Shown here one piece after another: positions 4,522 through 49,901 of a stretch of 64,000 nt of DNA (position 1 is the first letter of the stretch; every line of letters starts with the position of its first letter). The stretch lies in NCBI GenBank assembly GCA_000002435.2, contig CM018793.1, one strand, 5' to 3'. The notes beneath the pieces are model-generated. The model searched no databases and was not told where the DNA came from. It worked only from the letters and a program-made list of their open reading frames with translations. Origin of the DNA: Giardia intestinalis (taxonomy: Eukaryota). Made by a program: the position numbers and the translations under genes.

Positions 4522-4561
4522 CCTTTAATAAAGCTTCAGACAGCAGCCAAAAGCTCCAATG

Positions 4562-10172: not shown

Positions 10173-12124
10173 GGCCCGGGTCTTTATTTTTATCCCGGCC
10201 CGGGGCTGCCCGCGGGCTGCACTTTCGGGGCTTGAATAGACACTCAATAGGCCACCGAGTAGCGCAAGATAGGTCTCATAATTGTACTAGCATCAAAGTA
10301 GACTATTGGTCTTCAGGCTAATTCATATGCAAACTTTCACGCCTATATCTCCTTCTACTCCTAATAGGATCCTCGAACCCATTAGATTATGCATATAAAA
10401 GGATGTGCTTCTCCAATAGGGATGAGACAACTAGAAGTATCAACGTCCATTGTGGCTACAACACACGTAGAAGAACCAAGGGATTAGTAAGCTTGGCAGC
10501 CTACGCATATAACAACCGTTAGTCATGATAATTTCAGAGAATTCTTACTGGATGTGAAGGAGGTGACCAGAATAAGGGTGACGTGATTAATCTTCTGGTG
10601 GCAGCAATTATAATGATCGATAGTGCGCTAGGCTGCGGCAGAGCAGAAGGCCACGCCGGGCGCCGTGATGTCGTTGGCAGCATTCTGCTTTGCAGCGAGT
10701 GCCATTGTGGCGACTGAGCCTCTGTTTGCAACCAGAGCAGCCGGGCTATCTGGAGCGATACATGCAGAAAAAAGCCTCACCAATGTCGTTGCGCCACGTA
10801 GTTCCGCCGCAGCCACACCGTTAATCCTGTCGGTTACGGCCTGCACAGCAGAGAGTCGGCGCCGGTCAACTTGCGCGCCCGCTTGCATGTGAGAAGCACC
10901 TGGAAAGTGTCGCTCGCTGTAAGAAGCCTGGGGAAGGCCGCCGGGCCAGCGGGGGCAGCCACGGATTGACCGACGAAGCGGCTCGATGGGCTGGGAATGC
11001 GCATGCGTCAGCCCTCAGATTCTCCAGCAGCGGAAGGCAAGCGCTGAAAGGCTCTCCGCAGCCCTTGCCAAAGCCCAGCAGCATGCACAGCAGCGCTGTA
11101 CCACACGCATAAACGCTCAGAAACGGAGCTGCGCCGGTGCCCAGGGGAGCGGTCAAGACGTCCCGCACAGTGTCTACGCCCCCGGTGACACAGAGCTCCG
11201 CAAGGGCTGCTCCGAATGTGGTGGCGTCGAGTAAATGCGCGCACACAAGACACAGCAGCAGCCTCGTTGTAGGCCAGTTGAGGACGCACTCGCTGCTCCA
11301 CCCCGAGCTGTAGGTCTGACAGCAGGACGATCCGCTCCAGCCTCTCGGGCCCCTCCCCTGCTGTGCGCGTTGCAAGGCTCGCTGCGAAGGCACACGAGGC
11401 AGGGCCGCGCCGTGCATCCTCGAGCAGGCCGTCACTCAGCGCCAGCAGCTCCGCGTCCTGCACGACGCCGCCGGTGGCGTGGTAGTTCGCCATCAGGGAG
11501 CGCAACGAAGACGCAAGCATGAGCCCTCCTCGGCAGCCTCTCCGGTTGTCCGCCTGTCCGGGAATTATTCTTGCCAAATTGCATACGATTGCATTTTGAG
11601 ATTTCGTCTCCTTCCGTGGTGGACTGGAGCTTCAGCGTAGCGTCGTGTCTCCCGGGCCCGTCCACGCAGTGGCAGGCTACAGAGCCCGTTTGGCTGTCGC
11701 ACAATGTACTGGCCTACCGGGCACGCTGGGCAGCATCTTAGCGCCTCCGACGACGAGGAGCCACTGGCCCTGGACTGCACCACTAGGTCGCCTATCGGGC
11801 ACGCGCATGCTTCTTTCCGGATCCCGTCCATCCAGCTGCCAGCCCCGGAGGCGGAGCAGGTCGGGAGGCACCCTTCTGGCGAGAGCACGACAGGCAGCAA
11901 GGGCCAGCAGCCTTGCCATGGTCGCCCTCCTCGGCAGAGAGCCCGGCCCATCGCCCACTCCCCGCGGCCTCCGAAGAGTCCTCGCCTCCTGGTCCACCGG
12001 TCCGCATGCGTATCTACTTGCCACGTTATAGTAGCGAAGCCCCTCACCTGTCTGGCTATTCTTCACTCGACGTGGAAGGTGTTTACATGCGTAATGCACC
12101 GGCCGTGGACCAAATCTTAAGTTT

Positions 12125-19379: not shown

Positions 19380-19387
19380 CTTAGGTA

Positions 19388-21253: not shown

Positions 21254-21320
21254 CTCAGGTAGTGAATGCTATACAATGTGTGATAATGGGTAATAGAGGG
21301 TGATAGTGTGATAGTGGAGT

Positions 21321-23144: not shown

Positions 23145-23211
23145 CTCAGGTAGTGAATGCTATACAATGTGTGATAATGGGTAATAGAGGGTGATAGTGT
23201 GATAGTGGAGT

Positions 23212-25035: not shown

Positions 25036-25043
25036 CTTAGGTA

Positions 25044-26909
25044 GTGAATGCTGTACAATGTGTGATAATGGGTGATAGTATGATAGTGGTGTGTGGGGGT
25101 GATAGTGATAGTACGGGACTTCTCTTCATGGGCGGGTGCTACAAGACAGAGAGTCAGCCCGGCAGTGACATATGCACACAGGCTGAGGGAGGAGTGTGCA
25201 CTGCTTGTAAGGCAGATAGTCAGTACATATTCCAGAATGGGGCAGAGAAGGTGACCCCTGGTGGGGAGTGCATACTGTGCTGGGATACTATAGATAGAAA
25301 CGGGGTCATGGGAGTCAAGGACTGTCTCAAGTGTACGGCACCAGCTAATAACAAGGGGGCTGCCACGTGTACAGAATGCCAAGCAGGGTACGTTAAGGAT
25401 AACGCTTCTAATACGTGTAAGAAGTGCGGAGAGGGCTGCTCCGAGTGCTCAGAGAGTGATCAGCAATCGTGTACTGCCTGCTTTGAAGGGAAGTTCCTGA
25501 AGGCTGACAGTAAGACTTGTGTAGAGGCTAATCAATGTGGTAATGATAAGTATGCAGACCCGACAACAGGCCAATGTAAGGCATGCACAGACACAAGTGT
25601 CAATGAATGTGCTACGTGTACATACAGCGACACTCTTCAGAAGCCGGTGTGCACTGGATGCGGGGGCCAAAAGCCGCTTCTCAAGCAAAAAGCTGATGGC
25701 ACAGTAGAATGTGTTGATGATGGCGGCTGCCCTACTGGTGATACCCACTTCCTTGAACAATATCCAAAGGCTTGTGTCCCATGTGGTGATAATACACGAG
25801 GCGGCGTTGTCGGATGTAGCACCTGCACTGCAAAGGGAGGGTGCTCTGCCTGTTTAGCTGGGTATATAAAAGAGGGAAGTAGCGACCCAGTTACATGCAC
25901 CCCCTGTCACGCCAACTGTGCTACATGCTCTGCTGCTGGCAAGGATAAGTGTGATACATGCAAGCCAGGGTACTTCATGAAAGGCAGTGGTCCTACTGGT
26001 GAGTGCGTTGCTTGTGACAGTGAAGCCGACAATGGCATCGAGGGCTGTGGTGCATGCACAAACGATGGCGGTGCTTTCAAGTGCACCGATTGCAAGCCCA
26101 ACTATCGCAAGCAGAGCGATAGCAGTTCTGGCTCTGTTACATGTACAAAGGTGTGTGAAGATGATACTGCCTGCGGGGGCACTTCTGGTGCCTGCGATGC
26201 AATAGTGATTGATGCTAATGGAAAGGAGCTTCATTATTGTTCTTATTGTGGGGATAACAGTAAGGTACCAATTGATGGCATCTGTGCTACTGATAAGAAA
26301 GGTAATACTTGTAACAGTCATACATGTACACAGTGTGCTCAAGGGTACTTCTTATACATGAATGGCTGTTACAAGGTTGGTCAAGAACCAGGTAGTCATA
26401 TGTGCAAGACAGCAGGTAATACTGGGATATGCACAGAAGCGGCCAACAATAGATACTTCGTAGTCCCAGAGGCAACCAATGCTCAGCAGTCTGTACTAGC
26501 ATGTGGTAACCCATTAGGCACACTAATAGGTACTCAAGACAATGCTAAGGCATACGTGGGGGTCGAGGGCTGCTCCCAGTGTACAGCCCCAGTAGCTCTG
26601 ACTGAGGCTGGTATGGCTGCCGCTACATGCACCTCCTGTGACAGTGATAAGAAGCCCAACAAGGATGGCACCGGGTGTGTGCTGTGCTCTGTGGGTGATT
26701 GCAAGAGCTGTGTGGTGGATGATGTGTGTGGGGAGTGTGTTGATGGGTACAGTCTAGACAGCAGTGGGACCTCCTGTGTGTCTATGAGTACCAACAGGAG
26801 CGGGCTCTCCACGGGGGCCATCGCGGGGATCTCCGTCGCTGTGGTCGTCGTCGTGGGGGGCCTCGTGGGCTTCCTCTGCTGGTGGTTCATATGTAGAGGG
26901 AAGGCATGA
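25044..26909 (+). CDS. VSP copy V7 (type B, copy 2)
   Basis: 621 aa. Near-identical to B1 except for a 3' patch (VEGCSQCTAPVALTEAGMAAATC) that matches V1. Confidence 0.8.
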   Translation: MNAVQCVIMGDSMIVVCGGDSDSTGLLFMGGCYKTESQPGSDICTQAEGGVCTACKADSQYIFQNGAEKVTPGGECILCWDTIDRNGVMGVKDCLKCTAPANNKGAATCTECQAGYVKDNASNTCKKCGEGCSECSESDQQSCTACFEGKFLKADSKTCVEANQCGNDKYADPTTGQCKACTDTSVNECATCTYSDTLQKPVCTGCGGQKPLLKQKADGTVECVDDGGCPTGDTHFLEQYPKACVPCGDNTRGGVVGCSTCTAKGGCSACLAGYIKEGSSDPVTCTPCHANCATCSAAGKDKCDTCKPGYFMKGSGPTGECVACDSEADNGIEGCGACTNDGGAFKCTDCKPNYRKQSDSSSGSVTCTKVCEDDTACGGTSGACDAIVIDANGKELHYCSYCGDNSKVPIDGICATDKKGNTCNSHTCTQCAQGYFLYMNGCYKVGQEPGSHMCKTAGNTGICTEAANNRYFVVPEATNAQQSVLACGNPLGTLIGTQDNAKAYVGVEGCSQCTAPVALTEAGMAAATCTSCDSDKKPNKDGTGCVLCSVGDCKSCVVDDVCGECVDGYSLDSSGTSCVSMSTNRSGLSTGAIAGISVAVVVVVGGLVGFLCWWFICRGKA

Positions 26910-35339: not shown

Positions 35340-38300
35340 ATGACAACCACTAATCAGCTGCTTGATCGAATCCAGTCTCGTGCAGTTAAGAAAACACTCT
35401 TTTCCGAGATAAGTAAGAGCGAGCATCGTTTAACCACAGCTGCGTCTGCAGCTTACCAGCCGTCCTCATTTATGGACGCCAACGGATACAACTTTAATCC
35501 CTTCAAGAACACGAAAAGCTCTGATCCACCACCCAGTAACTGTTCACTCCCTAGTTTTTCTGCCACGGAATTAGAAGAGAAGGCTGTCAGATCAAAGACA
35601 AAACGCTTACTGAGTAAAGTTGAAGGCCATCTTCTCAAAGCCAAGGCGCGGAGCTTATCTAAGCCGTCTCCTGAAGAGCTCTCAAATACTCTTATGCAGA
35701 CTGTCTCTGATGTACCCATATCTTCTGCTTTGGTGTCAAACTTATGCGGCATTGACATCCCAGTTAGGATAGCAGAAAAGCGTCTTGCGGTCAGTTGTGA
35801 CGAAGGAATTGATCTCAAACCAGCTCTCTACGAACAAGTTAATCAGATACCTGGGAAGGAGGAACAGGGATCCACCACCAGACTCCAGAAGTATATGACT
35901 TACAAATACGATCCTCCCACAGAACTTAGCAGCGGTATTGACTTTATAGACAACAAAGTGCCGTTCTTAGTACATGAGCGACTAAGCACTGCTGCAAGTG
36001 GACGCTCTTGTAACAACATCGGTCATAGTAGCAAGCTTGATAAGCGATCGAGCATGTTAGGGATGGACTTAGCTACAGCAGGGCCAGAAGATCTCCGGGC
36101 ATACTTTTCTCGGTCGTCCAGTCCCAAGATATCTGTTACATCAACAAACACCAATGTTGCCACACCTCGAAAGAGTCCTGGAGATAGCAGCAGTGTAAGA
36201 TCTGCCGGGTCCAAACGGACGCCACTTCGACAAGAACGCTCTCATCTTCGTGACGCTCTTCTTGAGGCACCGAAGCAATTTCTCCCCGAGCAGACTCTTC
36301 AGAATTATGCAGACTATAAGACATCTGTTACTATTAACCAAATGCCCCATTTAGAGCAGGATGTTTTGGATCTCGAAACCACAGTCGAGCGGCGGAAGTT
36401 TGAAAGAGTTTTGCACTCTCCAGCAAAGCTCCAAGAAAAAGTGTTTCAGGTCAATCCGGAGCAAGTGATAGCTGCAGATTCTTGCAGATGTGATTGCCAC
36501 ACGTTGCCGCCGCACCAAATTGAGCTTCTACCCTATCTTCGCTGTCCCATGTGTCTGTGTAAAATACGGTCTGCTATGGAGAACGAACCAGAACCAGGGA
36601 CGACTTCTCTTTATCAGCATCTAAAGAAGGCTGCCAGTATGAAGAATAAGAATATGCCTAGGAATCTTTTGCACAACTCAAAGACTAACGTAGATTCCTT
36701 AGTTTATCGAACAACTGTGTTGCCCCCAGAAGAAGACTCGGCCAGCACTGCCGCACACGACAATTCTACCAAGAGCCTTCTAAATGAACTGAGAGAGGAA
36801 AAAGAAGAAACTGCTCAATTCATAGGAAGTCCGCTTGGTGCCATTAATGTCTCTCCACAAGCAATCTCGCCACGGCTAGCACAACGTTTGATCAACAGGG
36901 GACTTAATAAGGTGACCACACGTAATGAAAAGCTTCTTAGAGCCGCACTACAGCAAGCGATTCTTGCCGATAAGCTTTGGACCGACAGACTCTTGATGGA
37001 CATTTCCCCCGGTATAACCCCACAAGAGATTATAGACATTCTTCAGAAGCGTCGGTATGACCGGGCACCCTCTACTGTTGCAGTACCACTTATTCGAAAG
37101 ACCGCCACGTATCGGAGCAAGGTTGCCAACGATGATCTTGACCACGATGATCTTTTGCTTTCCTCTACTCTTCCACTGATCCAAGACTATGATTTGCAGA
37201 GCAATTCGTTGATAGATAAGGGGCTTGAAGAATCAGAACATGGCACCATCAGAGATGGATTTTATGGTATGGATGAACACACAAACAAGGAATTTGAAGA
37301 CTACACTCCCAATCCAACTGGAGCGCAGCCGCTGCGTCGCGTGAGGCTATCTGTTCCGGAATCAGTTAAGATACAATCACCAGCAGTACTACACATGCGA
37401 GATAGTATAGCTGATCCCACTGTACTTGATTCTCTTGGTGCACAGAAGCTTAAAGAGGCAAGAGCACATGAGGCTAATAAGGCGTTTATACCGAGGAGAC
37501 AAAAGCCTAATGTCTCAAATGCCGAAGCATTGGCGAAGAAAGTGCTGTACTCACGGTCTCGTGAGCAGCGTGCATCTAAGAGCAAAGAGATTATTGCCGA
37601 AATGGCCAGCGCTATCAAAGAAACATCATCCACAGCACGTTCTCGAGGGTCTCTAACAGGCTCATATTACTTACCACCCAGCTCAAGTGTCCGCATGCGT
37701 CCAGAGGAGTTGGCCGAATTCCAAGCCAATGTGACGAATGGATTTAAGGTCCAATCTACTAAGAAGGAGTATGTATTTAGATTTAGTCTTGCGTGTCTTT
37801 CTGTTAACGAGTATATATCCCTTCATTCTGTCAAGTATTTTAAATATAGATCGGTGTGTGGCTCACTAAACCTTTTTGTATATCTTAGCGATACAACACT
37901 ACAAGCTATCACAGAAGCATTTTACTTAGCAAAAAAGGTTGTAGATGTGGTGGTCGCAGGGGTTACCAACACACACGATCACTGCAACTCTCCAGGCCAG
38001 CCGAGCGTTTACAATTTGGCACAGAACAAAGACTTAGACTTAAATGTAGTGAACGGGGAATCTAAATCTGTAACCGATTCCATAGAGTTTACAGCCAAGA
38101 CTCGCTTGTCAAAGGATACATTATTATCTACATCAGGTCATCTCAGCTTTTCGTGCCCCTGCAACGGGCTTTACTATGTAGCACTACATATAGATAACAA
38201 GGACATCATGTATGTGGATGAAAGAGACTACAAGCAACTGATGCTAACGCAGCGGAAGGAAAATGCTCCTACAGCTGTTTTGCACAACCTAATAGAGAGC

Positions 38301-38831
38301 CAGCTGAAACTGTCAGAGGATAGTGGCACAGTGTCAAAGTCTATGCGTAAGCCGCAAGCAATTTTATCCAATAGGCTGTCCCATAGTGACCGTGAGGAAG
38401 AGTCTACAGATGCCATTCCTCCTGTTCCTCCAAATGAACGTGAGCCTTCGCCTCAGCTTATGGAGCACGATCTCGCTCTCAGTGATCAAGACACGTCAGA
38501 ATCTCGGCAGCACGCTGACGCTTCTAACCCACGGGCTGCAATTGCATCGGAATCGGTTTGCAGACGTACCCTAAGAACGGCCACGGACGATCACAAGCGC
38601 GACCTACCAGACGCTGACCAGTCCTTGCAGCATCATAGCGCTGAGGAGATGATGAATGAGACCCTTAGGTCAATTTACGCAGATAGCCGCCTTTCAGTAG
38701 ATATCCAGAGAACGATAGTCCCAGAGGCCTCTAACGGCTATATAGAAAAGGCTCTTCCGGTGAAATCCGTTGTCACGGCAATCCACCGGGCACAGAGCCG
38801 GCTCCGTAAGCTGACTGGCCAAGCGACATAG
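35340..38831 (+). CDS. hypothetical protein, Ser-rich with largely low-complexity sequence
   Basis: 1163-aa ORF, ATG verified. No recognisable domain. Confidence 0.6.
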   Translation: MTTTNQLLDRIQSRAVKKTLFSEISKSEHRLTTAASAAYQPSSFMDANGYNFNPFKNTKSSDPPPSNCSLPSFSATELEEKAVRSKTKRLLSKVEGHLLKAKARSLSKPSPEELSNTLMQTVSDVPISSALVSNLCGIDIPVRIAEKRLAVSCDEGIDLKPALYEQVNQIPGKEEQGSTTRLQKYMTYKYDPPTELSSGIDFIDNKVPFLVHERLSTAASGRSCNNIGHSSKLDKRSSMLGMDLATAGPEDLRAYFSRSSSPKISVTSTNTNVATPRKSPGDSSSVRSAGSKRTPLRQERSHLRDALLEAPKQFLPEQTLQNYADYKTSVTINQMPHLEQDVLDLETTVERRKFERVLHSPAKLQEKVFQVNPEQVIAADSCRCDCHTLPPHQIELLPYLRCPMCLCKIRSAMENEPEPGTTSLYQHLKKAASMKNKNMPRNLLHNSKTNVDSLVYRTTVLPPEEDSASTAAHDNSTKSLLNELREEKEETAQFIGSPLGAINVSPQAISPRLAQRLINRGLNKVTTRNEKLLRAALQQAILADKLWTDRLLMDISPGITPQEIIDILQKRRYDRAPSTVAVPLIRKTATYRSKVANDDLDHDDLLLSSTLPLIQDYDLQSNSLIDKGLEESEHGTIRDGFYGMDEHTNKEFEDYTPNPTGAQPLRRVRLSVPESVKIQSPAVLHMRDSIADPTVLDSLGAQKLKEARAHEANKAFIPRRQKPNVSNAEALAKKVLYSRSREQRASKSKEIIAEMASAIKETSSTARSRGSLTGSYYLPPSSSVRMRPEELAEFQANVTNGFKVQSTKKEYVFRFSLACLSVNEYISLHSVKYFKYRSVCGSLNLFVYLSDTTLQAITEAFYLAKKVVDVVVAGVTNTHDHCNSPGQPSVYNLAQNKDLDLNVVNGESKSVTDSIEFTAKTRLSKDTLLSTSGHLSFSCPCNGLYYVALHIDNKDIMYVDERDYKQLMLTQRKENAPTAVLHNLIESQLKLSEDSGTVSKSMRKPQAILSNRLSHSDREEESTDAIPPVPPNEREPSPQLMEHDLALSDQDTSESRQHADASNPRAAIASESVCRRTLRTATDDHKRDLPDADQSLQHHSAEEMMNETLRSIYADSRLSVDIQRTIVPEASNGYIEKALPVKSVVTAIHRAQSRLRKLTGQAT

Positions 38832-38876
38832 ACCACGGTCATCCAGAAGTAAAATCTTTTGGGTTCAATTTCTGGT

Positions 38877-41800
38877 ATGGAGAACGAAAAACCGGGTCGC
38901 TGTAGGTTTTATCCGTTGACTAGTATTGTCTGGGATACCGACACGGGTATATCTGCCACTACACCTGTAGATGACACTACTTACCCGGAGCTTTTGTTTT
39001 CCTGCACAGGACGCCATCTAGTGATGGGTCCAGCCAATGGGCGTGATTTTTTGTCCGTCTCACTTGATAACCTCGCGCTGGAAGAAAATATTTCCATCAA
39101 AGCGCGCGGAGAGCGTGTGCTGAGCTTTGAAGGCAGAACAGAGGCAGGAATTACTGGAATTCTCGCCGTTCCAAACGGGCACGTCCTTTGCTGGGAGGAA
39201 GATCACGCTCTTCGAGAGTATCACTTAGCCTTTGAATCAGATAATAAGACTGTGCTACTGGCAGAACTTGCCACTGACGTACAGCAACTTTATGCTCTCC
39301 CTCACCCCATATTGCTGACGTTGGACCCACCTGGTGATGACACTGTCTGCAAACCCCAGGAGATGCTTTGCTTGGGCACGTACATCACAGATACGTGTCT
39401 TACAGCTATCATCTTGATCGACAATGCACAACTAGCGTTCTGCAAAATAGCAGCGTTAGATGATTATATTAAGCATGGCACAGCTCCAACACTAACGAGC
39501 TGTGTGACGTCATCTAGACGCTTGGTGTTTGGTGTCTTCCAGTCGCCTGAGACCTTGTTAATAGTAGAGGCTGACGATCTATCTACACCACAAATCTATG
39601 ACGTAAGTCAAGTATTTGATGACAACCTCCTTGACGAAGGCACTAGTTATGCTGATCCAAAAGAAGTCGTTTTATTAGGACTATTTGACGGAAAATTTGC
39701 GATATTAGCATCTTATACCAGCGATTATGATACTGTTGTTGCTATTTATAACATTTTTGATAAAAAGCTAGAGTTTAGTACAGTTGTTAAGCAATATGTT
39801 GTAGGCTGTACCGTGACCCCATACTGCCCTGGTCCTTACGATTTCTTCTTTAATATGCTATTTCTAAACATGAGTGACATTGTTTCCCTAGACTTCTTTT
39901 ATTTTTCGTACGCCGCACGCGACAATTACAATGCAATTCTGGAGAGGCTCGACTCCTATATGAGCAAAGAAGGTCACTCCACAAACCACTTTATTAATGT
40001 ACTGGTTAAATCATGTGAGGAGTTCTTCCAATCTCTCAAGGTTTCTGGTGATTACGCCCACACCTTTATTCCGTTATTGAGTGGCTCTGAACTGTTCGGG
40101 ATGGTTCCCAGTGCACGCTTCTCTAGGGTTCCATGCCTTCCGGAGGTAGATCAGAGTATCTTTTTTTCTCCACAGAACATAGTCCTTAGTACCCCGGTCA
40201 TTTCATCTGCCTCAGCAATCGCAGATAACCCATCCATACCAGGCATCAACCATAAGGAAGACCTTATTAAACAAAAGATTATTACGATGGGCGACACAAT
40301 TGACTGGAGTTATTCAACCAACGCTTGTGAAATTAAGGACAAGATAAAGGAATTGGTCACTAATAGTTGCACTGAGTATAACCTAAGTGTTACGCTTTCA
40401 GAGTTACCTCCATTTCATCTGGATTCGCCTAATTGTGGCTATGATAAAATCTATGCCAATCTGGTGTTTGCTCACCTTGGTGGAACCAATCAAATGACCG
40501 TCTATGTAGAGACAGTTTCTCGCGTGTACATCTCAGACTTTTTACCTCTCTACATACTACAATTTGACATTAGAAATTCCCAGGACGGAAGTAGCTGCAT
40601 CAGTTCCTTAAAAGTTCCTCAGAACGAAGAAACTACTGCTCTGGAAACTGCTACTCTCTTAGATGATACTCTCCTTACTGATTACCCCACTGACATGCTA
40701 GGCCTAGCTATCAGCGATGAACCTCCATTAATGGAGGTCAGTGAAAAGAAACCAAGCAATGCCCATGAGCAGCCACTAATCTGTGCGTCTATCGAGGCGC
40801 ACTCTTCTCCTAAGACAGGCTCAGCTGAGCCGGCACCTTTGCATCAAGGGGAATCAAAGTTCTCTCCTTCGGGATCATTAAAGAACGACTTAAATTATCT
40901 AGAGGCAGAGCTAGATACACAGATTAATAAAAAGATTGATGAAGCCAAAGAAAAGTATGCTCAAGCACTTAGTAGTCTAATAACTGCATATGCTGTTAAA
41001 GGGGAGCTCACCCTATTTCTGGATTCTATCTTACCGGACTACTTTGCTACAAGCCCATCATACTTGTCAGTCATGAAACAACTCAATCAACTTAGAGGAG
41101 TTCATATCATGTTAGAGAGTAGAACTGTCGATGGGTGTTCTCTTAGCACCAACTTCCTCAGAAACCTTTATGCGATGAAGTCGCAAAACGCGTTTCCTTC
41201 CCTCACACCTATGTTTGGAGCGGACTCGCTGACATTTTCTACGGCAATCATAAAGGATATTAACGGATTATTGTGTTATCGTCTGAGCTCTCCGTTGTTA
41301 CCTAGCCATGCTTCTAGCGAGGAGACTACAATAGGTATTCACCACTTTTGCGATGTCATGGACACTGTACTCTCTGCTTATGAGCACCAGCTCGATGTAT
41401 TTCAACTGGGATATAGACTGTATTGGAACATGGACGAGTCACTAAAACTGTTGAACTCCAAAGAGCCTTGCACTGAACACTTTAATAATGCTGCTAGCTC
41501 TTTACCCACATCAACGATACAGCCGGACAGCACGTTATTTGGCACCTCCTCAAGTGGGGTTCGCACTAGCAGGCCTAAAGCTAATACCATTGACTCTCTG
41601 GATCTCAGCAACTATGAAGATGCTTCCCTTGAAGAGCTCACTTTAACTCAGAATAGGGTTTCAAATTCGGGTTTTTCTTCTTTATTTAACAGTATGAACT
41701 ATAAGTCATCCTATACCGGGATAGCACAGTCATACTCTTTAGATAACACAAACCTGCCTCTACGGTTAACCCGGCCTTTGGAAACAACGTATGAAAACGG

Positions 41801-43463
41801 CAACCAAATGAAGATTGCAAATAAATTTAAAGCATCGAGCCTTGATGAGGTCTTTCGTAAACTCGGCTCTGGGATTACTATGCGGATGTCTGTGAAGCAG
41901 CAGAGTCTTCCGCACGTGCAAGATAATTACTCACTTCCCCCGTGTACCAGCTTTATTTTGTCGGAGTTTGTGGAAGACGTGGACAGGATGGAGAATGCCT
42001 CAGCTGGGTCGGCTTCCTCTAGAAAGAAGTTGCCCAGCAAAAGGAGCTCGGTGTTCCAGCACTTTCCTAGCATAAAGCCGACTTTCAAGACTTCAGATGG
42101 GAAACAATATTCTAACGTTCTAACGGTAGCATTTAAACCGAGTATATATGATAACAACAATACCCTTAGTACTGCTACGTCAACTATATGCTGTGAGTAT
42201 CCAGATGGTTCATATTTAAGAGGACTCGTACAGAGCTTGGCACCGCCTCCTTTCTTCGAAGAAGTCTCGCCGAAAATAACAAAGTCCACGCTCTGCATAA
42301 CGGATTTATATGCATCCCATTCATTTGAGACAATTGTCGAACAGTCAAAGCAACTGTCTGGAGGCAATGTAGTTACTCATAAAGATGCTATGCATCAGAG
42401 GATCGAAAGCACTAGTCAGACCCTTTTTGGCGCCGAGAACAGTCTATCAAAATCTCAGACCAGTTTCAGTTTTGGTGTACCCATTCAGAAACATACTAGC
42501 CAGCCGCAGATGATAAACGAATCCACTCAGCAGAAGAGCGCCTGGCCAGAAGCAAAGCCATTTACATTTGTAGCACCAATAAAGTCAGAAGTGCAGTCAG
42601 AAAAACCACTGTTCTCGTTTGGACCAAAACTAGAACCTAGTAACTCTGTCCAGGCAGAAAAGTCGCCCGATGATAAATTGGAACCAGCTCAGAATAGGGA
42701 CGCAGCAGATATGACTCTACCGGTCCCCCATCCAGTACCATTATCAGTATCAACGGACACAACACACGAAGAGCAGAAAACATCAATATCTGACTCTAAA
42801 CCTGCAAGCGAAGCTCGTGAAAATATCAAAGATGAATCTACCAGCGAGACAGCAAGTGGTAGCAAGGCACTGTCATCTGGGTTTAATTTTAATGTTCTAA
42901 AACCCATCATAGCACAGGATGCAGGAAATAAATCAAAGAGTTGCGAATCTAGCTTCCAGCCAACCGCGCCTACTAAGACAGCTGGCAGTACTTCTAGTTT
43001 GTCCGAAGTATTTAATAACTTCACCAAGACCACCAAGACTGAACCAAATGGCAATAATGTACTTCAACCTAGTCCTAGTCAGCCAGCTGCAAATTCATTT
43101 GCTTTTGGTGTACCAAAAGAACCGCCTGAGAGTAATGTGGTGAGTACAGTGACTACTTTTGGCACTGGATTTGGCACCAGCACTAATTTTGGCTTTGATA
43201 CAGTAACTATCAATCCAACTCCCAACGTCGGAGCCCAGATGACAACACCGGTTACTACTTTCCAAAATTCCTTTTCATTTCAGGGAGTATTTGGTCAAGG
43301 ATCACAACAGACAGCACCAACCGCTAAAATGTTTAATCCTCCTTCCTCTGGCACAACAACTAATTCAGTTTTTGGCAATGTGGGATTTCCAGGGACCTCT
43401 AATCCATTTGGATCTGGCACGGCACCAATAAGCTTTAACTTTGGCGGCGTGGCGAACAAATAG
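38877..43463 (+). CDS. Large protein with C-terminal FG/FxFG/GFG repeats; candidate FG-nucleoporin
   Basis: The track start 38859 is TTG. The first ATG is 38877, with an AT-rich context. The C-terminal roughly 330 aa contain SFSFGVP, PLFSFGP, GFNFNV, SFAFGVP, TFGTGFGTSTNFGFD, SFSFQGVFGQG, VFGNVGFPG, PFGSGTAPISFNFGG in a Ser/Thr/Asn/Gln-rich background. Confidence 0.6.
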   Translation: MENEKPGRCRFYPLTSIVWDTDTGISATTPVDDTTYPELLFSCTGRHLVMGPANGRDFLSVSLDNLALEENISIKARGERVLSFEGRTEAGITGILAVPNGHVLCWEEDHALREYHLAFESDNKTVLLAELATDVQQLYALPHPILLTLDPPGDDTVCKPQEMLCLGTYITDTCLTAIILIDNAQLAFCKIAALDDYIKHGTAPTLTSCVTSSRRLVFGVFQSPETLLIVEADDLSTPQIYDVSQVFDDNLLDEGTSYADPKEVVLLGLFDGKFAILASYTSDYDTVVAIYNIFDKKLEFSTVVKQYVVGCTVTPYCPGPYDFFFNMLFLNMSDIVSLDFFYFSYAARDNYNAILERLDSYMSKEGHSTNHFINVLVKSCEEFFQSLKVSGDYAHTFIPLLSGSELFGMVPSARFSRVPCLPEVDQSIFFSPQNIVLSTPVISSASAIADNPSIPGINHKEDLIKQKIITMGDTIDWSYSTNACEIKDKIKELVTNSCTEYNLSVTLSELPPFHLDSPNCGYDKIYANLVFAHLGGTNQMTVYVETVSRVYISDFLPLYILQFDIRNSQDGSSCISSLKVPQNEETTALETATLLDDTLLTDYPTDMLGLAISDEPPLMEVSEKKPSNAHEQPLICASIEAHSSPKTGSAEPAPLHQGESKFSPSGSLKNDLNYLEAELDTQINKKIDEAKEKYAQALSSLITAYAVKGELTLFLDSILPDYFATSPSYLSVMKQLNQLRGVHIMLESRTVDGCSLSTNFLRNLYAMKSQNAFPSLTPMFGADSLTFSTAIIKDINGLLCYRLSSPLLPSHASSEETTIGIHHFCDVMDTVLSAYEHQLDVFQLGYRLYWNMDESLKLLNSKEPCTEHFNNAASSLPTSTIQPDSTLFGTSSSGVRTSRPKANTIDSLDLSNYEDASLEELTLTQNRVSNSGFSSLFNSMNYKSSYTGIAQSYSLDNTNLPLRLTRPLETTYENGNQMKIANKFKASSLDEVFRKLGSGITMRMSVKQQSLPHVQDNYSLPPCTSFILSEFVEDVDRMENASAGSASSRKKLPSKRSSVFQHFPSIKPTFKTSDGKQYSNVLTVAFKPSIYDNNNTLSTATSTICCEYPDGSYLRGLVQSLAPPPFFEEVSPKITKSTLCITDLYASHSFETIVEQSKQLSGGNVVTHKDAMHQRIESTSQTLFGAENSLSKSQTSFSFGVPIQKHTSQPQMINESTQQKSAWPEAKPFTFVAPIKSEVQSEKPLFSFGPKLEPSNSVQAEKSPDDKLEPAQNRDAADMTLPVPHPVPLSVSTDTTHEEQKTSISDSKPASEARENIKDESTSETASGSKALSSGFNFNVLKPIIAQDAGNKSKSCESSFQPTAPTKTAGSTSSLSEVFNNFTKTTKTEPNGNNVLQPSPSQPAANSFAFGVPKEPPESNVVSTVTTFGTGFGTSTNFGFDTVTINPTPNVGAQMTTPVTTFQNSFSFQGVFGQGSQQTAPTAKMFNPPSSGTTTNSVFGNVGFPGTSNPFGSGTAPISFNFGGVANK

Positions 43464-43464
43464 G

Positions 43465-45699
43465 CTACATACCTTCTATTTCCTTGGCATCCCAAAGCTT
43501 CCTTTGGACACACTTCTGTAAGCGCATCTCGGACCGTCCTGTTGACAGGGGCACACGGTCCTCCGGATACTTTCTGGCAGCCAGTCTTGTCTGAAGAAGT
43601 GGTTGCAGGATTGCCTTTGCAGATTCATAGAGGTTCAGTTTGCTATCATTGCTTTTAAGGTTGCTCCTTGTAATTGCCTTCTTCACATTTAATAGCCGAT
43701 GCACGACCTCCTTCTTGTAGGAAGCAGTATCCATGGAACTGAGGGCAGAATATGCGGCAAAGGTTTGCATCCTATCTTGAGGCATGATGATTCTCAGTAT
43801 TGAGGAGAAGTCATCCTCTTGCTTTGGAGGAGATGCGGTTCGCGTAGTCGTATCCTTATACTCTTTTATGTGCTGCTCATAATCCTCCATCGACTTTGCC
43901 TGTTCAAGCTTTTCCAAAAGCTCACTATTGTGAATATAAATAAGGATCTTTTTGTATTTGTTTATGTCATCCTTGGACAGAAAGTTGAACTCGTTTTTGG
44001 CATCATATCTGTTGTCCGGAATAACCACATCGAAGAGTGTTTCGTCGTCAGCCATTTCTATGCTCTTTGTCATCTTCTTTGTGTGTAGCTTAAAGCCTGT
44101 GCTAATGGGTTGCTTTGCAAAACGTTTTCGATCATGGATATGAATGCTATTGATCTGTAGAGAGCTCAGCTGAGGTGTCTCTGACTCTGTGAGAGAAATG
44201 GCAGGGGCAGATTCTGAAAAGGAGCTATCTGTAGGCATTCCTCGCATCACAGCACTGTTCATTATCGTCAAATCGCTATCATCAGAACCCCCCTCTGCGT
44301 CTTCACGAAGCTGTGCCACTCTGTTGGAGTGACGAGACTTAAGTAATTGGGAGTTGATCATGGGATTCTGAGAACGAGCTATGTCAGTAAGGCTCTTTAG
44401 ATTCCCACTACTTATGAGGTTTCGTGCCAGCGAGGCATTTTCTGCACTCTTTTCTGAAATTTCGGCGGTTAGTTCTTTGATAATACGATCACTGAGGCCA
44501 CTATTCGGAGTGGCCAACTGGTCTCTTAGCGCTTTCTCGTGACGCCGCAAACACCTCCATGCTCGCTTCTTCCCGTGGTCAAGCGCTGAACCGAGCGGTT
44601 CAGTAATAGGTGGGGCTTCTTCAAGATGCTTGCAAAGTGGTTGTTGAGTTGAGTTACTAACAGGCTGATGAGGTAGAGGTGCAATCCACAAGCTTTTCTT
44701 ACTGGCTGTAGCATGCCCCCGTGCGAGTGCAGTTGCCATTATTTCATTCTTTGCTGAATTGACCGTTGGTGCAGATACAGGGAAATCAGGCTTTTTGGCA
44801 AAGTTGCTAGCACCTTGATAGTTATAGAACTCCTTCCAATCTCTATCTATGGAGCAAACATTACCCCCTTGTCTGTTGCGAACAGATGGAGCGGAGCAGG
44901 CGGAGCTTATGATAGAAACTAATTGATTTTCTCGCACAGAGATGACGTCAGCAATACGGTCTTCTACAGATTTAACACGCTGCTCCGTTTTTTTGCGGCT
45001 ACTGTGTGCTTGGTCCTGAGGCTTCTGCGTAGATGTCTGTTTAGTGTTGTAACTGTCCATAATCAACTTTACATTAGAAACATATGGGTCCTCGTGATAG
45101 AACTTTGCTAGAATAATATCTGGATCTGTGCTCACCTCACCATTAACTTCTGCAGTGTCAATGATCTCTGCCACGCGATTCAGTGTGTGTTTAAGCCTCT
45201 CCTTCTTCTCTGCTGCCTCATCCTCCGATAAATAGGACACCTCATCGGCTGCGTCAGCCGTGGTAGTTGTCTGTTTGATCTCATCTGAAAGAAACTTCTC
45301 AATGTGTTGAGGGAGTGGCCGTGGCTTGTGGATAGCACGCATTGGAGAAGAAGAACCAGCCACTGTCAGATGGGCGCTGCTCCCTGTTTCATACGCGGCT
45401 CTGCCCTCATCGATGATAGACTTTGTTAAGGCATTTCGATGCATCACCTGCCGCCGTTTGATAGCATTTCTCATCTCCTTTAGATCTGCAGCAGTAGCTG
45501 TCTGTTGTGATAAAATAGATGGTCCTGGCTGCTTGCGTGTGAGAGACGCAGTGCTCCCACCAGTCATGCTTCCGTCTACACAGCGCTCGGAATCAGTCAC
45601 TAGTCGAGACAGCTCCTCATATATCCGTAGGTTTTTATCTATTCGTGTAGCTAAACTGTTGAAATAGGTGCTGCGTAAGGCATTCTCTGAAAGAGCCAT
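43465..45699 (-). CDS. hypothetical protein
   Basis: 744-aa ORF. ATG at 45697-45699 (minus) with AT-rich upstream. Its stop lies 1 bp from the convergent upstream gene. Confidence 0.6.
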   Translation of the reverse strand: MALSENALRSTYFNSLATRIDKNLRIYEELSRLVTDSERCVDGSMTGGSTASLTRKQPGPSILSQQTATAADLKEMRNAIKRRQVMHRNALTKSIIDEGRAAYETGSSAHLTVAGSSSPMRAIHKPRPLPQHIEKFLSDEIKQTTTTADAADEVSYLSEDEAAEKKERLKHTLNRVAEIIDTAEVNGEVSTDPDIILAKFYHEDPYVSNVKLIMDSYNTKQTSTQKPQDQAHSSRKKTEQRVKSVEDRIADVISVRENQLVSIISSACSAPSVRNRQGGNVCSIDRDWKEFYNYQGASNFAKKPDFPVSAPTVNSAKNEIMATALARGHATASKKSLWIAPLPHQPVSNSTQQPLCKHLEEAPPITEPLGSALDHGKKRAWRCLRRHEKALRDQLATPNSGLSDRIIKELTAEISEKSAENASLARNLISSGNLKSLTDIARSQNPMINSQLLKSRHSNRVAQLREDAEGGSDDSDLTIMNSAVMRGMPTDSSFSESAPAISLTESETPQLSSLQINSIHIHDRKRFAKQPISTGFKLHTKKMTKSIEMADDETLFDVVIPDNRYDAKNEFNFLSKDDINKYKKILIYIHNSELLEKLEQAKSMEDYEQHIKEYKDTTTRTASPPKQEDDFSSILRIIMPQDRMQTFAAYSALSSMDTASYKKEVVHRLLNVKKAITRSNLKSNDSKLNLYESAKAILQPLLQTRLAARKYPEDRVPLSTGRSEMRLQKCVQRKLWDAKEIEGM

Positions 45700-45819: not shown

Positions 45820-46371
45820 TCATAACTTCACCTTTCGAGTTTCGCCCTCAGACCCTATTCCCAAGTCAACTCTCCGGACAGTACTTTCTCGCGGTCTGAC
45901 AAAGATGATACGTCTTGTGCTGTTTAGTATATCTGGGCGGATAAATGAGCAAATAGCCGTCGCCTTAGAGAGGTTACCAGATGCTCGGAGGAGACACGAT
46001 CCTAGAACGGCAAAATTACACTGCTCGCCATATATCTTCCGAAGAAGCTCTATTCTGACTTCAAACTCTGTCTCGTCGATTCCCAAGACAGCCCAGGGTG
46101 ACTGCCTGAGCGTTTCTGCCCACTTCTCGTCAGGCGTTGCCAGCAGCTTTTCGCCCTCTGTCAAGACGACGCCCACAACGTCTGAAGGCAATAGGAGATC
46201 CTTAGCTGATGAGAACCTGCTCAACATGCTAAACTGGGGGGAGATAGCTAGCGTGTACATCTGCTGAAACTCCCGCTCAATTTGACAAATGTAGTTCTTG
46301 ATGGTTACCTGTGGGTCCGTAACAATAGATACAAAACGAAAGATTCCCAAGACATCGACTACCAGTTTCAT
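45820..46371 (-). CDS. hypothetical protein
   Basis: 183-aa ORF with a more protein-like composition than the overlapping + strand ORF 45782-46267. ATG verified. Divergent from the UAP56 gene. Confidence 0.4.
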   Translation of the reverse strand: MKLVVDVLGIFRFVSIVTDPQVTIKNYICQIEREFQQMYTLAISPQFSMLSRFSSAKDLLLPSDVVGVVLTEGEKLLATPDEKWAETLRQSPWAVLGIDETEFEVRIELLRKIYGEQCNFAVLGSCLLRASGNLSKATAICSFIRPDILNSTRRIIFVRPRESTVRRVDLGIGSEGETRKVKL

Positions 46372-46486
46372 TAGCGCCTATTCTCTGTGCCTCGTGCTTC
46401 AATCCCTGAACAAAAAAGTTTTATCCCTTATGGCGTGCGCTACTTTTGCATTTTTTTGCCATTTCAATAAAGAGTTTTTTAAAAGC

Positions 46487-47851
46487 ATGGCACCAAAGGC
46501 AGACAAGGAAAGCGGAAAGAATGCAGCCGGCGTTTCTTCTAAAGAGTCAGTGCCTCAGAAGTTGGTCAGTAAGGACGATACTGGCGACGAGTTGGCGCTG
46601 CTGGCGGATACAGGAGCTGAAGTGGCGTCTGGAGCGCTTAGACAAGCACGAGCAGGCTCGCCGCGATCTGGTGCCTTGCTCACACGTTTCTCAGATTTTA
46701 ATCTCAGGGAAGAGGTCTTGCAGGCCATCATAAGCAACGGATTCGAGAGCCCTTCAGATGTACAATCAATGGCAATACCCCCTGCTTTGGAGCACAAAGA
46801 TGTGATATGTCAAGCAAAGAGTGGTAAGGGCAAGACAGCCGTTTTTGTACTATCCCTGCTACACATGATAGATCCTCAAGCGGCCCCGCACAAAGTCCAG
46901 GCCCTCGTTCTATGCAACACACATGAGCTTGCAATGCAGATATACAAAGAGTTCACTCGCTTTGCAATCAACCTCCCAGATATTAAAGATAAAATACTTT
47001 GTGCTATTGGAGGTGTTACGGTGAGCCTACACGTCAGGGCTCTAAAGTCTAAGGATGTCTCCATAGCGGTTGGAACCATTGGCCGCGTGAGCGACTTAGT
47101 GGAGAGAGGAGCATTAGACCTCAGCTTCATTAAATATCTGGTGTTAGATGAGTTCGATGCGCTGTTCAAAGAAGAAGATAACTTCAAGAAGATTGCCGGA
47201 TTGATCTCTAAAATGCCCGCCACACACCAAACATTGCTCTTCACTGCTACCTTCACCGAGCACTCTGAGAAATTCGCCCGCTCCATCCTCAGGGATGGGT
47301 ACGTGGCAATCCTGGTTGACGATAAGCAGTTAGTTCTTACAGGGTTGATGCAGTACTACTTCAACGCCCCTGAGGAGAAGAAGCTTCATATTCTTCTTGA
47401 TTGTCTAAGGCTCTTGCCGTTTTCGCAAGCAGTTATCTTTGCAAGGGACATCTCGCGTGTCACAGCTCTAAATGAGTTCCTCAAGGAAGAAGGCCACGAG
47501 TGTGTGTGCTTCTTCGGAAAAATGCACCACAAGAAGCGAGAGGAGGTCTTCCAGGGGTTCAAAGATAAGAAGGCGCGGATCCTTGTCTCGACCGACATCT
47601 TCCAGCGTGGTGTTGACTTCGCCAATGTGAACCTGGTCATCCACTATGATATGCCGGACTCATCCGACGCATATCTTCACAGATCAGGGAGAGCCGGGCG
47701 TTTTGAAACCGCGGGGATGGTCTTGTTGTTTGTCGGGACTGCCGAAGAGTCGGAAATGTTGTCACAGATTCAAGGCCGTTTCGCCACCTCCATCCCTCAG
47801 GTGAAGTCCCCAGAGGAAATTGATGTCAAGGCGGCCTTCACTGGGAAGTAA
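46487..47851 (+). CDS. DExD-box RNA helicase UAP56/Sub2 (DDX39B) ortholog
   Basis: CQAKSGKGKTAVFVLSLL aligns to UAP56 CQAKSGMGKTAVFVLATL. Also LVLDEFD (a DEFD variant of DECD), LQQYYF-like GLMQYYF, ILVSTDIFQRGVDF and YLHRSGRAGRFETAG. The real start is MAPKADKES at 46487 (atttcaataaagagttttttaaaagcATG). The track's 46298 start is an upstream extension. Confidence 0.9.
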   Translation: MAPKADKESGKNAAGVSSKESVPQKLVSKDDTGDELALLADTGAEVASGALRQARAGSPRSGALLTRFSDFNLREEVLQAIISNGFESPSDVQSMAIPPALEHKDVICQAKSGKGKTAVFVLSLLHMIDPQAAPHKVQALVLCNTHELAMQIYKEFTRFAINLPDIKDKILCAIGGVTVSLHVRALKSKDVSIAVGTIGRVSDLVERGALDLSFIKYLVLDEFDALFKEEDNFKKIAGLISKMPATHQTLLFTATFTEHSEKFARSILRDGYVAILVDDKQLVLTGLMQYYFNAPEEKKLHILLDCLRLLPFSQAVIFARDISRVTALNEFLKEEGHECVCFFGKMHHKKREEVFQGFKDKKARILVSTDIFQRGVDFANVNLVIHYDMPDSSDAYLHRSGRAGRFETAGMVLLFVGTAEESEMLSQIQGRFATSIPQVKSPEEIDVKAAFTGK

Positions 47852-47897
47852 AAAGACTCTCACTTTAATCGTTTTGTTTGATGTTGAAAAAAATTCC

Positions 47898-49901
47898 ATG
47901 GCTGACAAGACTGATAAGCCAAGAACGTACGTTCCGCCATCCCAGCGCAGTAGGATGCAGTCAGATAGCTTCTCCAGCGTATCGGATCTCAACTCGAGTC
48001 CCGGCCTCAAGTTATCTATTAGCACTCCTAGCATATCAACGGAGGTGATGAATCCCAATGCCCCCTTTGTGAGTGTCAGTGGCCAGACAAAGGTAAAGCA
48101 AGAATATCAGGGGCAAGAAAACGGGTATGAAGACGGTACTCGCTCCGTTACCCTAGGTGCTCGATCTTTTGATGTCCTTCTCAACCCGTCGACCTCCGGC
48201 TCCAATCTTACTGTTAGGCATATAAAATCCCAACAAAGGTTGTCAGATAAGCTCGACATGCTAATTCCACCTCCAGAGATAATTCTCTTCAAGCGCAGCG
48301 CGGAAAACAAGATGATAATCGACTATAACTCCATGGAGCCAGCCAATATAAAGATCGAGTATCCACAACTGGAAGGGAAGAATAAGGGGGTAAATAAAGG
48401 CAACTTTAGAGACCTGGACTTCAAAGACTTCTCTTCGGAGACCCTTCAGAAGCTTGGCTTTCCTCAAGACTTGATCAGGAACGTTGGAAAGCTCCGCTAT
48501 ACACAGCCGACGCCCATCCAAGAAAATGCGATCCCCCTTGTGCTGTCTTCTATGGACCTTTTAGCAACGTCCCAGACAGGCTCTGGAAAAACGTTTTCCT
48601 TCTTATCTCCCATCATTGCACAGCTCATTAGTAGTCGTGCAAAGGATGCTATCTCGGACGATGATAAGAATATGGAACAATCCATGTCTTTTCCTTTGGC
48701 TGTTATCCTGTCCCCAACTAGGGAGCTCACCCAACAGATTGCATTCATGTGCTACCAGCTCACCTTCAAGACCAACCTTATTGTGAGGCTTGTTTATGGG
48801 GGTGAGGGGGCTAGGGAGCAGAGAGGCCTATTAAAGAAGGGCTGCGACATTGTGATAGCAACACCTGGTCGCCTCAAAGATTTCCTCGAGAGGAGGTGTC
48901 TTAGCTTAAAATATGTTCGTGTCATGGTGCTAGACGAGGCAGATAAAATGCTCGATATGGGATTCGAACCTCAAATCCGCGATCTTGTATACAAGTTTGA
49001 TATGCCTGGTAATGGACCTAACGGCAATCGGCAAACCCTTATGTTTAGCGCTACCTTTGGGACCGGGGTTCAGGCCATGGCCAAGCGATATCTCCACAAT
49101 GAAGCCCGCATACACGTTGGGCAAATAGGTAGCACAACTACGATGATAAAGCAGCAATTTGAATACTTTGCCGAAACAGCTATAAAGTCAGTGGACAAAC
49201 GCATTGATAAACTAATACATATCTTGAAGAGCCCCGGTTCTATCCCTACGGCCTCATTTCTTACTCTGATATTTGTAGAAACAAAGAAGGATATCGGGTA
49301 TATCATAACAAAGCTCCTCAATGCTGGCCTGAGGGTGTGCGAGATGCATGGGGATCTTGAGCAGCGCGAGAGGCAGAACAATCTCAAGAGCTTCAAGGAC
49401 GGAAAGACTCCCGTTCTCGTTGCTACTGACGTAGCCCAGCGTGGCATCGACATAGGAGCAATCCGACACGTCATTAATTTCGATTTTCCAAAAGATATAG
49501 ATACATATATACATCGCATTGGTAGAACGGGACGCGCTGGGGCAGAGGGGCTTGCTACATCTTTTATTCTTCTCGACACACCCCACTACATATTGAGGGA
49601 CCTGAAGAATATCCTTCTGCAATCCAAGCAACCGTTGCCAAAGTTCCTTCAGGACAGCATGCCAAGCAAGTACGGGCAGGTGAGTGGTAGGGTGAGATCC
49701 AGGGAATATGAGTCTGTGAAAAAAGGTGCACGGATTGACTCTGATGAAGATTTGTCCGACTCAAGTGATTGTGCTGAACAGCTCCACTCGCGGTCTAGTC
49801 GTCATACAGGAGCCTCCGAAGCTGTGACTCCGGCTAAAACCCCAGCCAAACCGTCAGCCTCTATAAACGACACGAAAGAACCCGCTGAACGTTGGGATTA
49901 A
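47898..49901 (+). CDS. DEAD-box RNA helicase, Ded1/DDX3/Vasa family
   Basis: TSQTGSGKT, PTRELTQQI, TPGRL, VLDEADKMLDMGFEPQIR, MFSATF, HGDLEQRER...LVATDVAQRGIDI, INFDFPKDIDTYIHRIGRTGRAG. The real ATG is 47898 (MADKTDK), with an AT-rich context. Confidence 0.9.
   Translation: MADKTDKPRTYVPPSQRSRMQSDSFSSVSDLNSSPGLKLSISTPSISTEVMNPNAPFVSVSGQTKVKQEYQGQENGYEDGTRSVTLGARSFDVLLNPSTSGSNLTVRHIKSQQRLSDKLDMLIPPPEIILFKRSAENKMIIDYNSMEPANIKIEYPQLEGKNKGVNKGNFRDLDFKDFSSETLQKLGFPQDLIRNVGKLRYTQPTPIQENAIPLVLSSMDLLATSQTGSGKTFSFLSPIIAQLISSRAKDAISDDDKNMEQSMSFPLAVILSPTRELTQQIAFMCYQLTFKTNLIVRLVYGGEGAREQRGLLKKGCDIVIATPGRLKDFLERRCLSLKYVRVMVLDEADKMLDMGFEPQIRDLVYKFDMPGNGPNGNRQTLMFSATFGTGVQAMAKRYLHNEARIHVGQIGSTTTMIKQQFEYFAETAIKSVDKRIDKLIHILKSPGSIPTASFLTLIFVETKKDIGYIITKLLNAGLRVCEMHGDLEQRERQNNLKSFKDGKTPVLVATDVAQRGIDIGAIRHVINFDFPKDIDTYIHRIGRTGRAGAEGLATSFILLDTPHYILRDLKNILLQSKQPLPKFLQDSMPSKYGQVSGRVRSREYESVKKGARIDSDEDLSDSSDCAEQLHSRSSRHTGASEAVTPAKTPAKPSASINDTKEPAERWD

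Follow-up and report, generated by a model that had tools for sequence, protein, structure and literature searches.

Does a large 'hypothetical protein' of Giardia intestinalis that ends in a phenylalanine-glycine (FG)-type tail belong to the nuclear pore? The question is raised by gene GL50803_15109, which lies at positions 38877-43463 (plus strand) of a 64,000-nucleotide (nt) stretch of contig CM018793.1 (assembly GCA_000002435.2); this whole stretch was analysed and is referred to below as the window. Hardly anything is known of what makes up the Giardia nuclear pore, with about half a dozen nucleoporin (Nup) candidates from a hidden Markov model (HMM) screen of 2010 (PMC2951903). A large conserved protein that ends in an FG-type tail would serve in practice as a bait with which to define this pore in a binucleate and deeply divergent eukaryote. 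We confirm that the FG-type tail is statistically and evolutionarily robust, and on balance we lean towards reading GL50803_15109 as a Giardia-restricted FG nucleoporin, on evidence that comes solely from composition and evolution.

The open reading frame (ORF) is intact. It starts at the first ATG (38877), runs for 1528 codons and ends with TAG at 43461-43463, and thus encodes the 1528-residue protein that an earlier note on this DNA had described. It is an exact match to GL50803_0015109 of G. intestinalis strain WB, annotated as 'hypothetical protein'. The ratio of nonsynonymous to synonymous substitution rates (dN/dS), which here and below compares WB with strain P15, is 0.20 over the whole gene, and we therefore regard GL50803_15109 as a real, constrained gene:

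38877..43463, plus strand: complete coding sequence of GL50803_15109, 1528 amino acids (aa) plus TAG; collinear full-length orthologues; whole-gene dN/dS 0.20

All eight FG motifs quoted in the earlier note were found in the translation, starting at aa 1196 (SFSFGVP), 1245 (LFSFGP), 1335 (GFNFNV), 1407 (SFAFGVP), 1428 (FGTGFGTSTNFGFD), 1465 (SFSFQGVFGQG), 1498 (VFGNVGFPG) and 1510 (PFGSGTAPISFNFGG). The tail, aa 1181-1528 (348 aa), contains 28 Phe and 25 Gly, arranged in 11 FG dipeptides, four of them within FxFG. Composition-keeping shuffles gave a mean of 2.0 FG, and none of 20,000 reached 11 or more; FxF occurs eight times against 2.2 expected (p=0.0007). Tyr is absent, Trp occurs once, and Ser, Thr, Asn, Gln, Gly, Pro and Ala together account for 63-71% of residues. 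Many FG, FxFG or GLFG motifs, hydrophilic spacers rich in S/T/N/Q/G/P and few other aromatics are the make-up of the FG class. The window contains 28 ORFs that reach 200 aa, and none but this one has more than one FG in any 130-aa stretch.

The motifs are unevenly spread, with three FG in aa 1181-1260, none in 1261-1400 and eight in 1401-1528. As Tandem Repeats Finder (TRF) detected no tandem array in the tail at the DNA level, we consider them dispersed and degenerate motifs rather than sequence repeats; the 'FG-repeat tail' of the earlier note holds for the motifs and their enrichment, but not for the repeats. An origin of the motifs by recent tandem duplication was rejected for the same lack of an array. 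Two parts of the tail can be told apart:

42417..43076, plus strand: proximal FG-poor charged tail, aa 1181-1400; 3 FG, 21% D/E/K/R, dN/dS 0.45
43077..43460, plus strand: distal uncharged FG cluster, aa 1401-1528 (128 aa); 8 FG (2 FxFG), 16 Phe, no Tyr or Trp

In the proximal part, SFSFG, FTF, FSFG and FNF motifs are set on long charged spacers. The distal cluster contains 6.2 FG per 100 aa, with 12.5% Phe, 4.7% D/E/K/R and 71% S/T/N/Q/G/P/A. Judging from its composition and the lack of predicted secondary structure, the tail as a whole is probably disordered.

Three other lineages of the G. intestinalis complex carry orthologues that are full-length and collinear (1527-1553 aa), with identities to WB of 79% (assemblage E, P15), 59% (an assemblage-B-type genome, GSB_154477 cluster) and 53-55% (the lineage of ERR3333378). 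The orthologue in G. muris, GMRT_13079, has 1311 aa and about 24% identity. Local synteny around the gene is conserved within the complex and not with G. muris, where a kinase is encoded upstream and a HECT ligase downstream. FG enrichment was repeated in each of the three other orthologues of the complex (p<=3.5e-4): the range across the complex is 7-12 FG, all four orthologues are about 5-fold above the composition expectation, and the four FxFG motifs are kept in all G. intestinalis assemblages compared. As an aside on this sampling, the ERR3333378 orthologue was found on contig L003 of the Logan assembly (gene at 36-4697) and is syntenic, with synonymous sites saturated in several regions; by the above identities this Giardia lineage stands further from WB than the assemblage-B-type sequence.

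Conservation in the tail is concentrated on Phe. Within the complex, 23 of the 28 tail Phe are invariant versus 26% of other residues (Fisher p=4e-9), and with G. muris added, 9 of the 28 versus 8% (p=7e-4). The proximal tail, with 15-28% of columns invariant, has the same dN/dS of 0.45 as the linker at aa 581-665, yet retains its Phe; kept Phe on drifting spacers is what is seen in the FG class. In the distal cluster 45-65% of columns are invariant, spacers included, and its dN/dS is 0.14. Since the two conserved modules of the protein show 0.18 (aa 1-580) and 0.11 (aa 666-870), this cluster is under selection as strong as they are.

As a reference we used human Nup214, the sequence of which was verified on PDB chains: residues 1-433 matched full-length 2OIT with no mismatch, and residues 416-2090 covered 7R5J chain V0 completely (3443 bits). 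In Nup214, FG density is 0.5-2 per 100 aa over residues 1201-1600, where 9-11% of residues are charged. Over residues 1601-2090 it rises to 5.5-10 per 100 aa; Phe makes up 9-13% there and charged residues 1-4%, Tyr is absent and Trp occurs once. The Giardia distal cluster is near-identical in composition to the latter segment, and both FG domains show a gradient from a charged, FG-poor proximal part to an uncharged, Phe-rich distal one. The FG domain is also C-terminal, at aa 1181-1528, as in Nup214; in yeast Nup159 it is central. Like Nup214 and Nup159, GL50803_15109 would be a large soluble protein with a beta-rich domain, a disordered linker, long helices and C-terminal FG, the order in Giardia being taken from low-confidence models and conservation. 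The two differ in size, the Giardia FG domain spanning 348 aa and 11 FG where that of Nup214 spans 881 aa and 42 FG, and in the strong conservation of the Giardia distal spacers; moreover, no sequence or profile similarity to Nup214 was detected, with homologues in Giardia only. The earlier note had called the tail the hallmark of FG nucleoporins. FG-domain sequence grammar, Phe conservation, the distal dN/dS and the Nup214-like composition bear this out for the tail; as a nucleoporin the protein is a candidate, and no homology to a known Nup was found.

What carries this tail is less uniform than the single structured block of about 1150 residues proposed in the earlier note. Module borders drawn from the conservation profile and dN/dS give instead two conserved modules, aa 1-580 and 666-870, with a hypervariable linker between them and a patchy low-complexity region after:

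38877..40616, plus strand: conserved N-terminal module, aa 1-580, the presumed anchoring domain; 46% of columns invariant, dN/dS 0.18
39123..39227, plus strand: single WD40-like blade motif, aa 83-117, SFEGRTEAGITGILAVPNGHVLCWEEDHALREY; matches to bacterial WD40-type repeats in profile searches
40617..40871, plus strand: hypervariable acidic/Ser-Pro linker, aa 581-665, probably disordered; about 2% of columns invariant, dN/dS 0.45
40872..41486, plus strand: conserved helical module, aa 666-870; predicted helices 669-707, 726-749 and 814-860; dN/dS 0.11
41487..42416, plus strand: S/T/N-rich region with conserved islands, aa 871-1180, delimited by conservation profile and invariant columns; dN/dS 0.14

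The N-terminal module is the sole region with significant similarity to G. muris. In two low-confidence AlphaFold2 (AF2) models, DSSP assigned 16-21 strands to aa 1-345, which appear beta-rich, followed by a mixed alpha/beta part up to aa 580 with helices at 348-390 and 481-495. The linker differs in length among orthologues. The helical module has the lowest dN/dS of the protein; its three long helices also come from DSSP of a low-confidence AF2 model, and with a heptad-like pattern at about aa 680-707 it may represent a coiled-coil anchor. An LFLDSxLPxxFA motif within it is invariant, G. muris included. The region at aa 871-1180 is mostly devoid of regular secondary structure in the low-confidence model, and its islands are KIANKF..MSVKQQ (980-1009), the basic SRKKLPSKRSS (1047-1058) and STLCITDLYASHSFETIVEQSKQLSGGN (1137-1164). 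In the basic patch (42015-42050), 10 of the 12 positions are invariant in the G. intestinalis complex, and it is not clearly retained in G. muris; its appearance is that of a nuclear localisation signal (NLS) of the classical kind or of a phospho-regulated site. A Pom121-like transmembrane anchor was considered and rejected: the top 19-residue hydropathy window scores 1.78 and includes an Asp.

Detectable homologues are limited to Giardia. An exhaustive HMM search of 1.84 billion representative proteins returned Giardia proteins only, plus weak single-blade WD40 matches, and a second-iteration profile with G. muris included gave no further homologues. The bacterial WD40-type matches arise only through SFEGRTEAGITGILAVPNGHVLCWEEDHALREY at aa 83-117 and reach significance because the targets are repetitive, each repeat contributing just 5-10 bits, so the segment is at most a hint of a propeller blade. 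Several WD40 repeats (PF00400) were not found: there is no Pfam WD40 match, one blade-like segment, and no internal blade repeats in a profile self-alignment. In Pfam, none of the five orthologues retrieved a relevant family at E<=10, and PDB sequences matched neither the N-terminal profile nor the tail. A search with the tail alone (348 aa, 5.8 billion proteins, E<=10) returned no match and missed even near-identical orthologues, presumably through the handling of low complexity, and is thus uninformative.

The check on the N-terminal fold suggested in the earlier note was run twice, on aa 1-1180 with five sequences and on aa 1-600 with G. muris added, with AF2 predicted local distance difference test (pLDDT) scores of 29.6 and 30.8; neither a Nup fold nor a family from outside the nuclear pore complex (NPC) came out. 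Foldseek of these low-confidence models against PDB gave nothing below E 0.01 and TM-scores <=0.10, which we treated as noise; about 10 of the 50 weak matches listed look like beta-propellers by title and were given no weight. In hhalign, the N-terminal alignment against the human Nup214 N-terminal domain (NTD) scored Prob 0.45%, with a thin query profile (Neff 1.9). Because the profile is thin and the structure models are unusable, the missing propeller signal is compatible with a propeller. A match of the N-terminal part to a non-NPC family, named in the earlier note as evidence to the contrary, was looked for in Pfam, PDB and profile searches, and none was found.

The antibody mAb414 prefers FxFG nucleoporins. 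Vicente and Cande (PMC4161512) name this FG-Nup antibody among those that they used and report a rim-like nuclear-pore localisation in Giardia (Figure S7C), which supports the presence of FG-type antigens at the nuclear rim. In the HMM screen of Neumann et al. 2010 (PMC2951903, Table 2, columns as read by us), the Giardia candidates are only Sec13, Nup155, Nup107, Nup96-98, Rae1, Nup54 and possibly Nup35, with none for Nup214, Nup88, Nup62 or Nup153. This agrees with the scarcity of FG nucleoporins in diplomonads asserted in the earlier note, and the majority of Giardia nucleoporins having yet to be identified supports a place for a further one. A Giardia localisation atlas (PMC13322205) lists seven nuclear-envelope proteins; its one listed nucleoporin, Nup54, formed putative inclusions when tagged, and its supplement places a protein with an importin-beta domain both at the nuclear membrane and on the cytoplasmic caudal axonemes. 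Together with these records, the FG enrichment, the four conserved FxFG motifs, the Tyr-free tail, the conservation of Phe and the distal purifying selection support a nucleoporin; so do the lack of a transmembrane segment and of any match to a non-NPC family and, by analogy, the composition, gradient and module order shared with Nup214. The nucleoporin interpretation is plausible and partly supported, and it is beyond what sequence tools alone can decide.

If GL50803_15109 is such a protein, the two modules under purifying selection (dN/dS 0.11-0.18; their models remain at the low pLDDT given above) are the candidate anchor and would dock it onto the scaffold of the nuclear pore. The last 348 residues would then act as an unfolded tether, in which the charged, FG-poor stalk of aa 1181-1400 bears the compact, uncharged, Phe-rich cluster of aa 1401-1528 and positions it within the transport channel or at its mouth. 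Phe side chains of the cluster may offer transient sites to transport receptors of importin-beta type, and the cluster, cohesive at the tip, would add to the permeability barrier. The protein would be a new candidate among FG nucleoporins with lineage-specific anchors.

Several observations weigh against a place at the pore, and some of them favour the main alternative, in which GL50803_15109 belongs outside the NPC and bears a disordered tail of FG type. It could then be a scaffold of cytoplasmic condensates or of some other structure particular to Giardia (basal bodies, flagellar pores, median body or ventral disc), the Phe-rich tail serving cohesive or partner-specific contacts apart from nuclear transport. 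FG repeats by themselves are insufficient for assignment to the NPC (PMC2951903), and FG-repeat proteins are also known from outside the pore (review PMC8311347), in which, as probably in Giardia, a disordered FG region is joined to an unrelated folded domain. The family is Giardia-only, and many Giardia-only hypothetical proteins were found on cytoskeletal structures (PMC13322205). Pfam, PDB-sequence and profile searches linked the protein to neither a Nup nor any other family, the Pfam models Nucleoporin_FG and Nucleoporin_FG2 matched none of the five orthologues at E<=10 (a result to which we give little weight), and the AF2 models are too low in confidence to assign an anchor fold to the N-terminal part. 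Eleven FG is a low count for a large FG nucleoporin, against the 42 of the Nup214 FG domain, and the G. muris tail has four, a marginal enrichment (p=0.04). The distal spacers are more conserved than a purely 'fuzzy' FG domain would lead one to expect; they could instead reflect a specific folded or partner-bound state, and so suggest one specific partner over a generic barrier. GL50803_15109 is absent from the 608 proteins of the atlas of 2026 (PMC13322205), no record of its localisation, interaction, expression or proteomic detection was found, and its locus tags were found in none of the paper texts searched. What speaks for the pore is that the tail, close in composition to the Nup214 FG domain, shows none of the Tyr, Arg-Gly or Pro-rich grammar typical of the intrinsically disordered regions of RNA granules and coats, that Pfam revealed no motor, microtubule-binding, ankyrin, NEK or coiled-coil-rich cytoskeletal-family signature, and that the atlas table does not contain the protein. 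We hold the non-NPC account to be possible, if rather doubtful. A related idea, which we consider very unlikely, places the protein as an FG-barrier component at a gate other than, or besides, the nuclear pore, namely at the flagellar pores or the cytoplasmic axonemes, where the eight axonemes exit; a Giardia-only anchor fold with a compact conserved FG cluster would there recruit a receptor of importin-beta type, and the importin-beta-domain protein at both the nuclear membrane and caudal axonemes (PMC13322205) is the one relevant pointer.

A narrower form of the nucleoporin reading would make the protein a highly diverged Giardia orthologue of Nup214/Nup159 of the cytoplasmic filaments, and would imply an N-terminal seven-bladed propeller to dock Dbp5/DDX19, the DEAD-box helicase of mRNA export, coiled coils that bundle with Nup88/Nup82 and Nup62/Nsp1 homologues, and a C-terminal FG domain for export receptors. 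Module order and the FG and charge gradient are those of human Nup214, the one WD40-like blade has a parallel in the Nup214 NTD, which itself gives WD40-like blade matches (THO3/CIAO1), and the Nup214 slot appears free in Giardia, because the HMM screen gave no candidate for Nup214, Nup88 or Nup62 (PMC2951903). This form rests just on module order and tail composition, however: the hhalign result, the lack of Pfam and PDB-sequence matches and of internal blade repeats, and a propeller fold not demonstrated at pLDDT of about 30, where Foldseek returns noise, all tell against it, and beta-plus-alpha proteins commonly share such an architecture by chance. We regard orthology with Nup214/Nup159 as unlikely. 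The same order of beta, alpha and disordered parts, again from low-confidence models, recalls protocoatomer-type proteins. Vesicle-coat or ER-exit-site components of Sec31/Sec16 type, in which a beta-propeller and a helical region are joined to a long disordered stretch, would look alike. Yet no orthologue matched the Pfam WD40, Sec31 or Sec16 models, the combination of WD40 and ACE1 was not found, the tail is rich in Phe, Gly, Thr, Ser and Asn rather than Pro, and no helical domain follows the disordered part, which leaves this option scarcely credible. The tail might, finally, be neutral low-complexity sequence with incidental FG, all function residing in the N-terminal 1180 residues. Its fast-evolving proximal part and the few FG retained in G. 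muris fit such a view, whereas the selection data disfavour it: the distal cluster is constrained, Phe is conserved far over background, and F-G adjacency exceeds that in every composition-preserving shuffle. A neutral tail is thus highly improbable.

Among known systems, the lineage-specific FG nucleoporins of Trypanosoma brucei are a precedent for a Giardia-restricted FG nucleoporin, as FG proteins of a divergent protist that searches with opisthokont Nups had missed. They came from NPC proteomics (DeGrasse et al. 2009, PMC2742445) and were recognised by FG content, as listed in PMC2951903, Table 1; they were shown biochemically in the NPC, whereas the Giardia candidate is known from sequence. 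Its low FG content has parallels in another group of nucleoporins. Yeast Nup60 and Nup2 and vertebrate Nup50 are low-FG peripheral nucleoporins with few FxF/FxFG motifs on charged spacers, as in Giardia aa 1181-1400, and the conserved basic patch KKLPSKR (aa 1050-1056) appears similar to NLS-like segments known from basket nucleoporins. These proteins are much smaller, however, and without a large conserved N-terminal domain.

A proteome-wide FG scan would presumably recover GL50803_15109 too, which makes it a good lead but not an unexpected one. At the pore, it could help to ask if the cytoplasmic-filament module has been retained in unrecognisable form or replaced; elsewhere in the cell, it would show a protist deploying FG-type chemistry away from the pore.

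The gene is tightly packed, as is usual in Giardia, with 45 bp separating it from the upstream neighbour and a single base from the convergent downstream gene. Giardia genes have short AT-rich initiator-type promoters and poly(A) signals of AGTRAA type, and candidate elements of both kinds can be read in the upstream spacer:

38832..38876, plus strand: intergenic spacer, 45 bp, AT-rich stretch abutting the ATG; AGTAAA at 38848-38853

The AGTAAA lies 17 nt past the stop of the upstream gene. No AGTRAA-type signal is visible in the 100 nt past the stop of GL50803_15109 (43461-43560), a stretch that lies inside the convergent neighbour (ORF end at 43465). Neither adjoining gene (35340-38831, plus strand, 1163 aa; 43465-45699, minus strand, 744 aa) has a Pfam family. 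Both keep their places beside GL50803_15109 in P15, and the downstream one does so in ERR3333378 as well.

Some 2.8 kb downstream of GL50803_15109, two adjacent DEAD-box helicase genes are encoded on the plus strand at 46298-47851 and 47820-49901. The first is nearest to the mRNA-export helicases UAP56/Sub2/DDX39B (E 2e-84) and the second to DDX3/Ded1 (E 6e-95); neither is Dbp5-like. Their adjacency is retained in the ERR3333378 lineage and is no functional evidence in Giardia.

Elsewhere in the window, genes for variant-specific surface proteins (VSP, PF03302) form an array at 13544-34028 (plus strand), with near-tandem units of 607, 621, 607, 607 and 621 aa at 17556-26909. The array is flanked by GC-rich sequence, with a GC content of 0.60-0.675 at 10-14 kb and 28-34 kb versus about 0.46 in the rest of the window. 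The H/ACA small nucleolar RNA GlsR24 was identified at 9640-9786 on the minus strand (Rfam RF02487, 166.6 bits, full length); as it lies within a plus-strand ORF of 349 aa (9186-10235), this ORF is probably not a gene. GlsR24, the VSP genes and the exact match of GL50803_15109 all mark the window as Giardia DNA. A 1226-aa protein encoded at 4562-8242 (minus strand) consists nearly entirely of ankyrin repeats (Ank_2, E 1.6e-178) and is presumably of the large Giardia 'protein 21.1' type.

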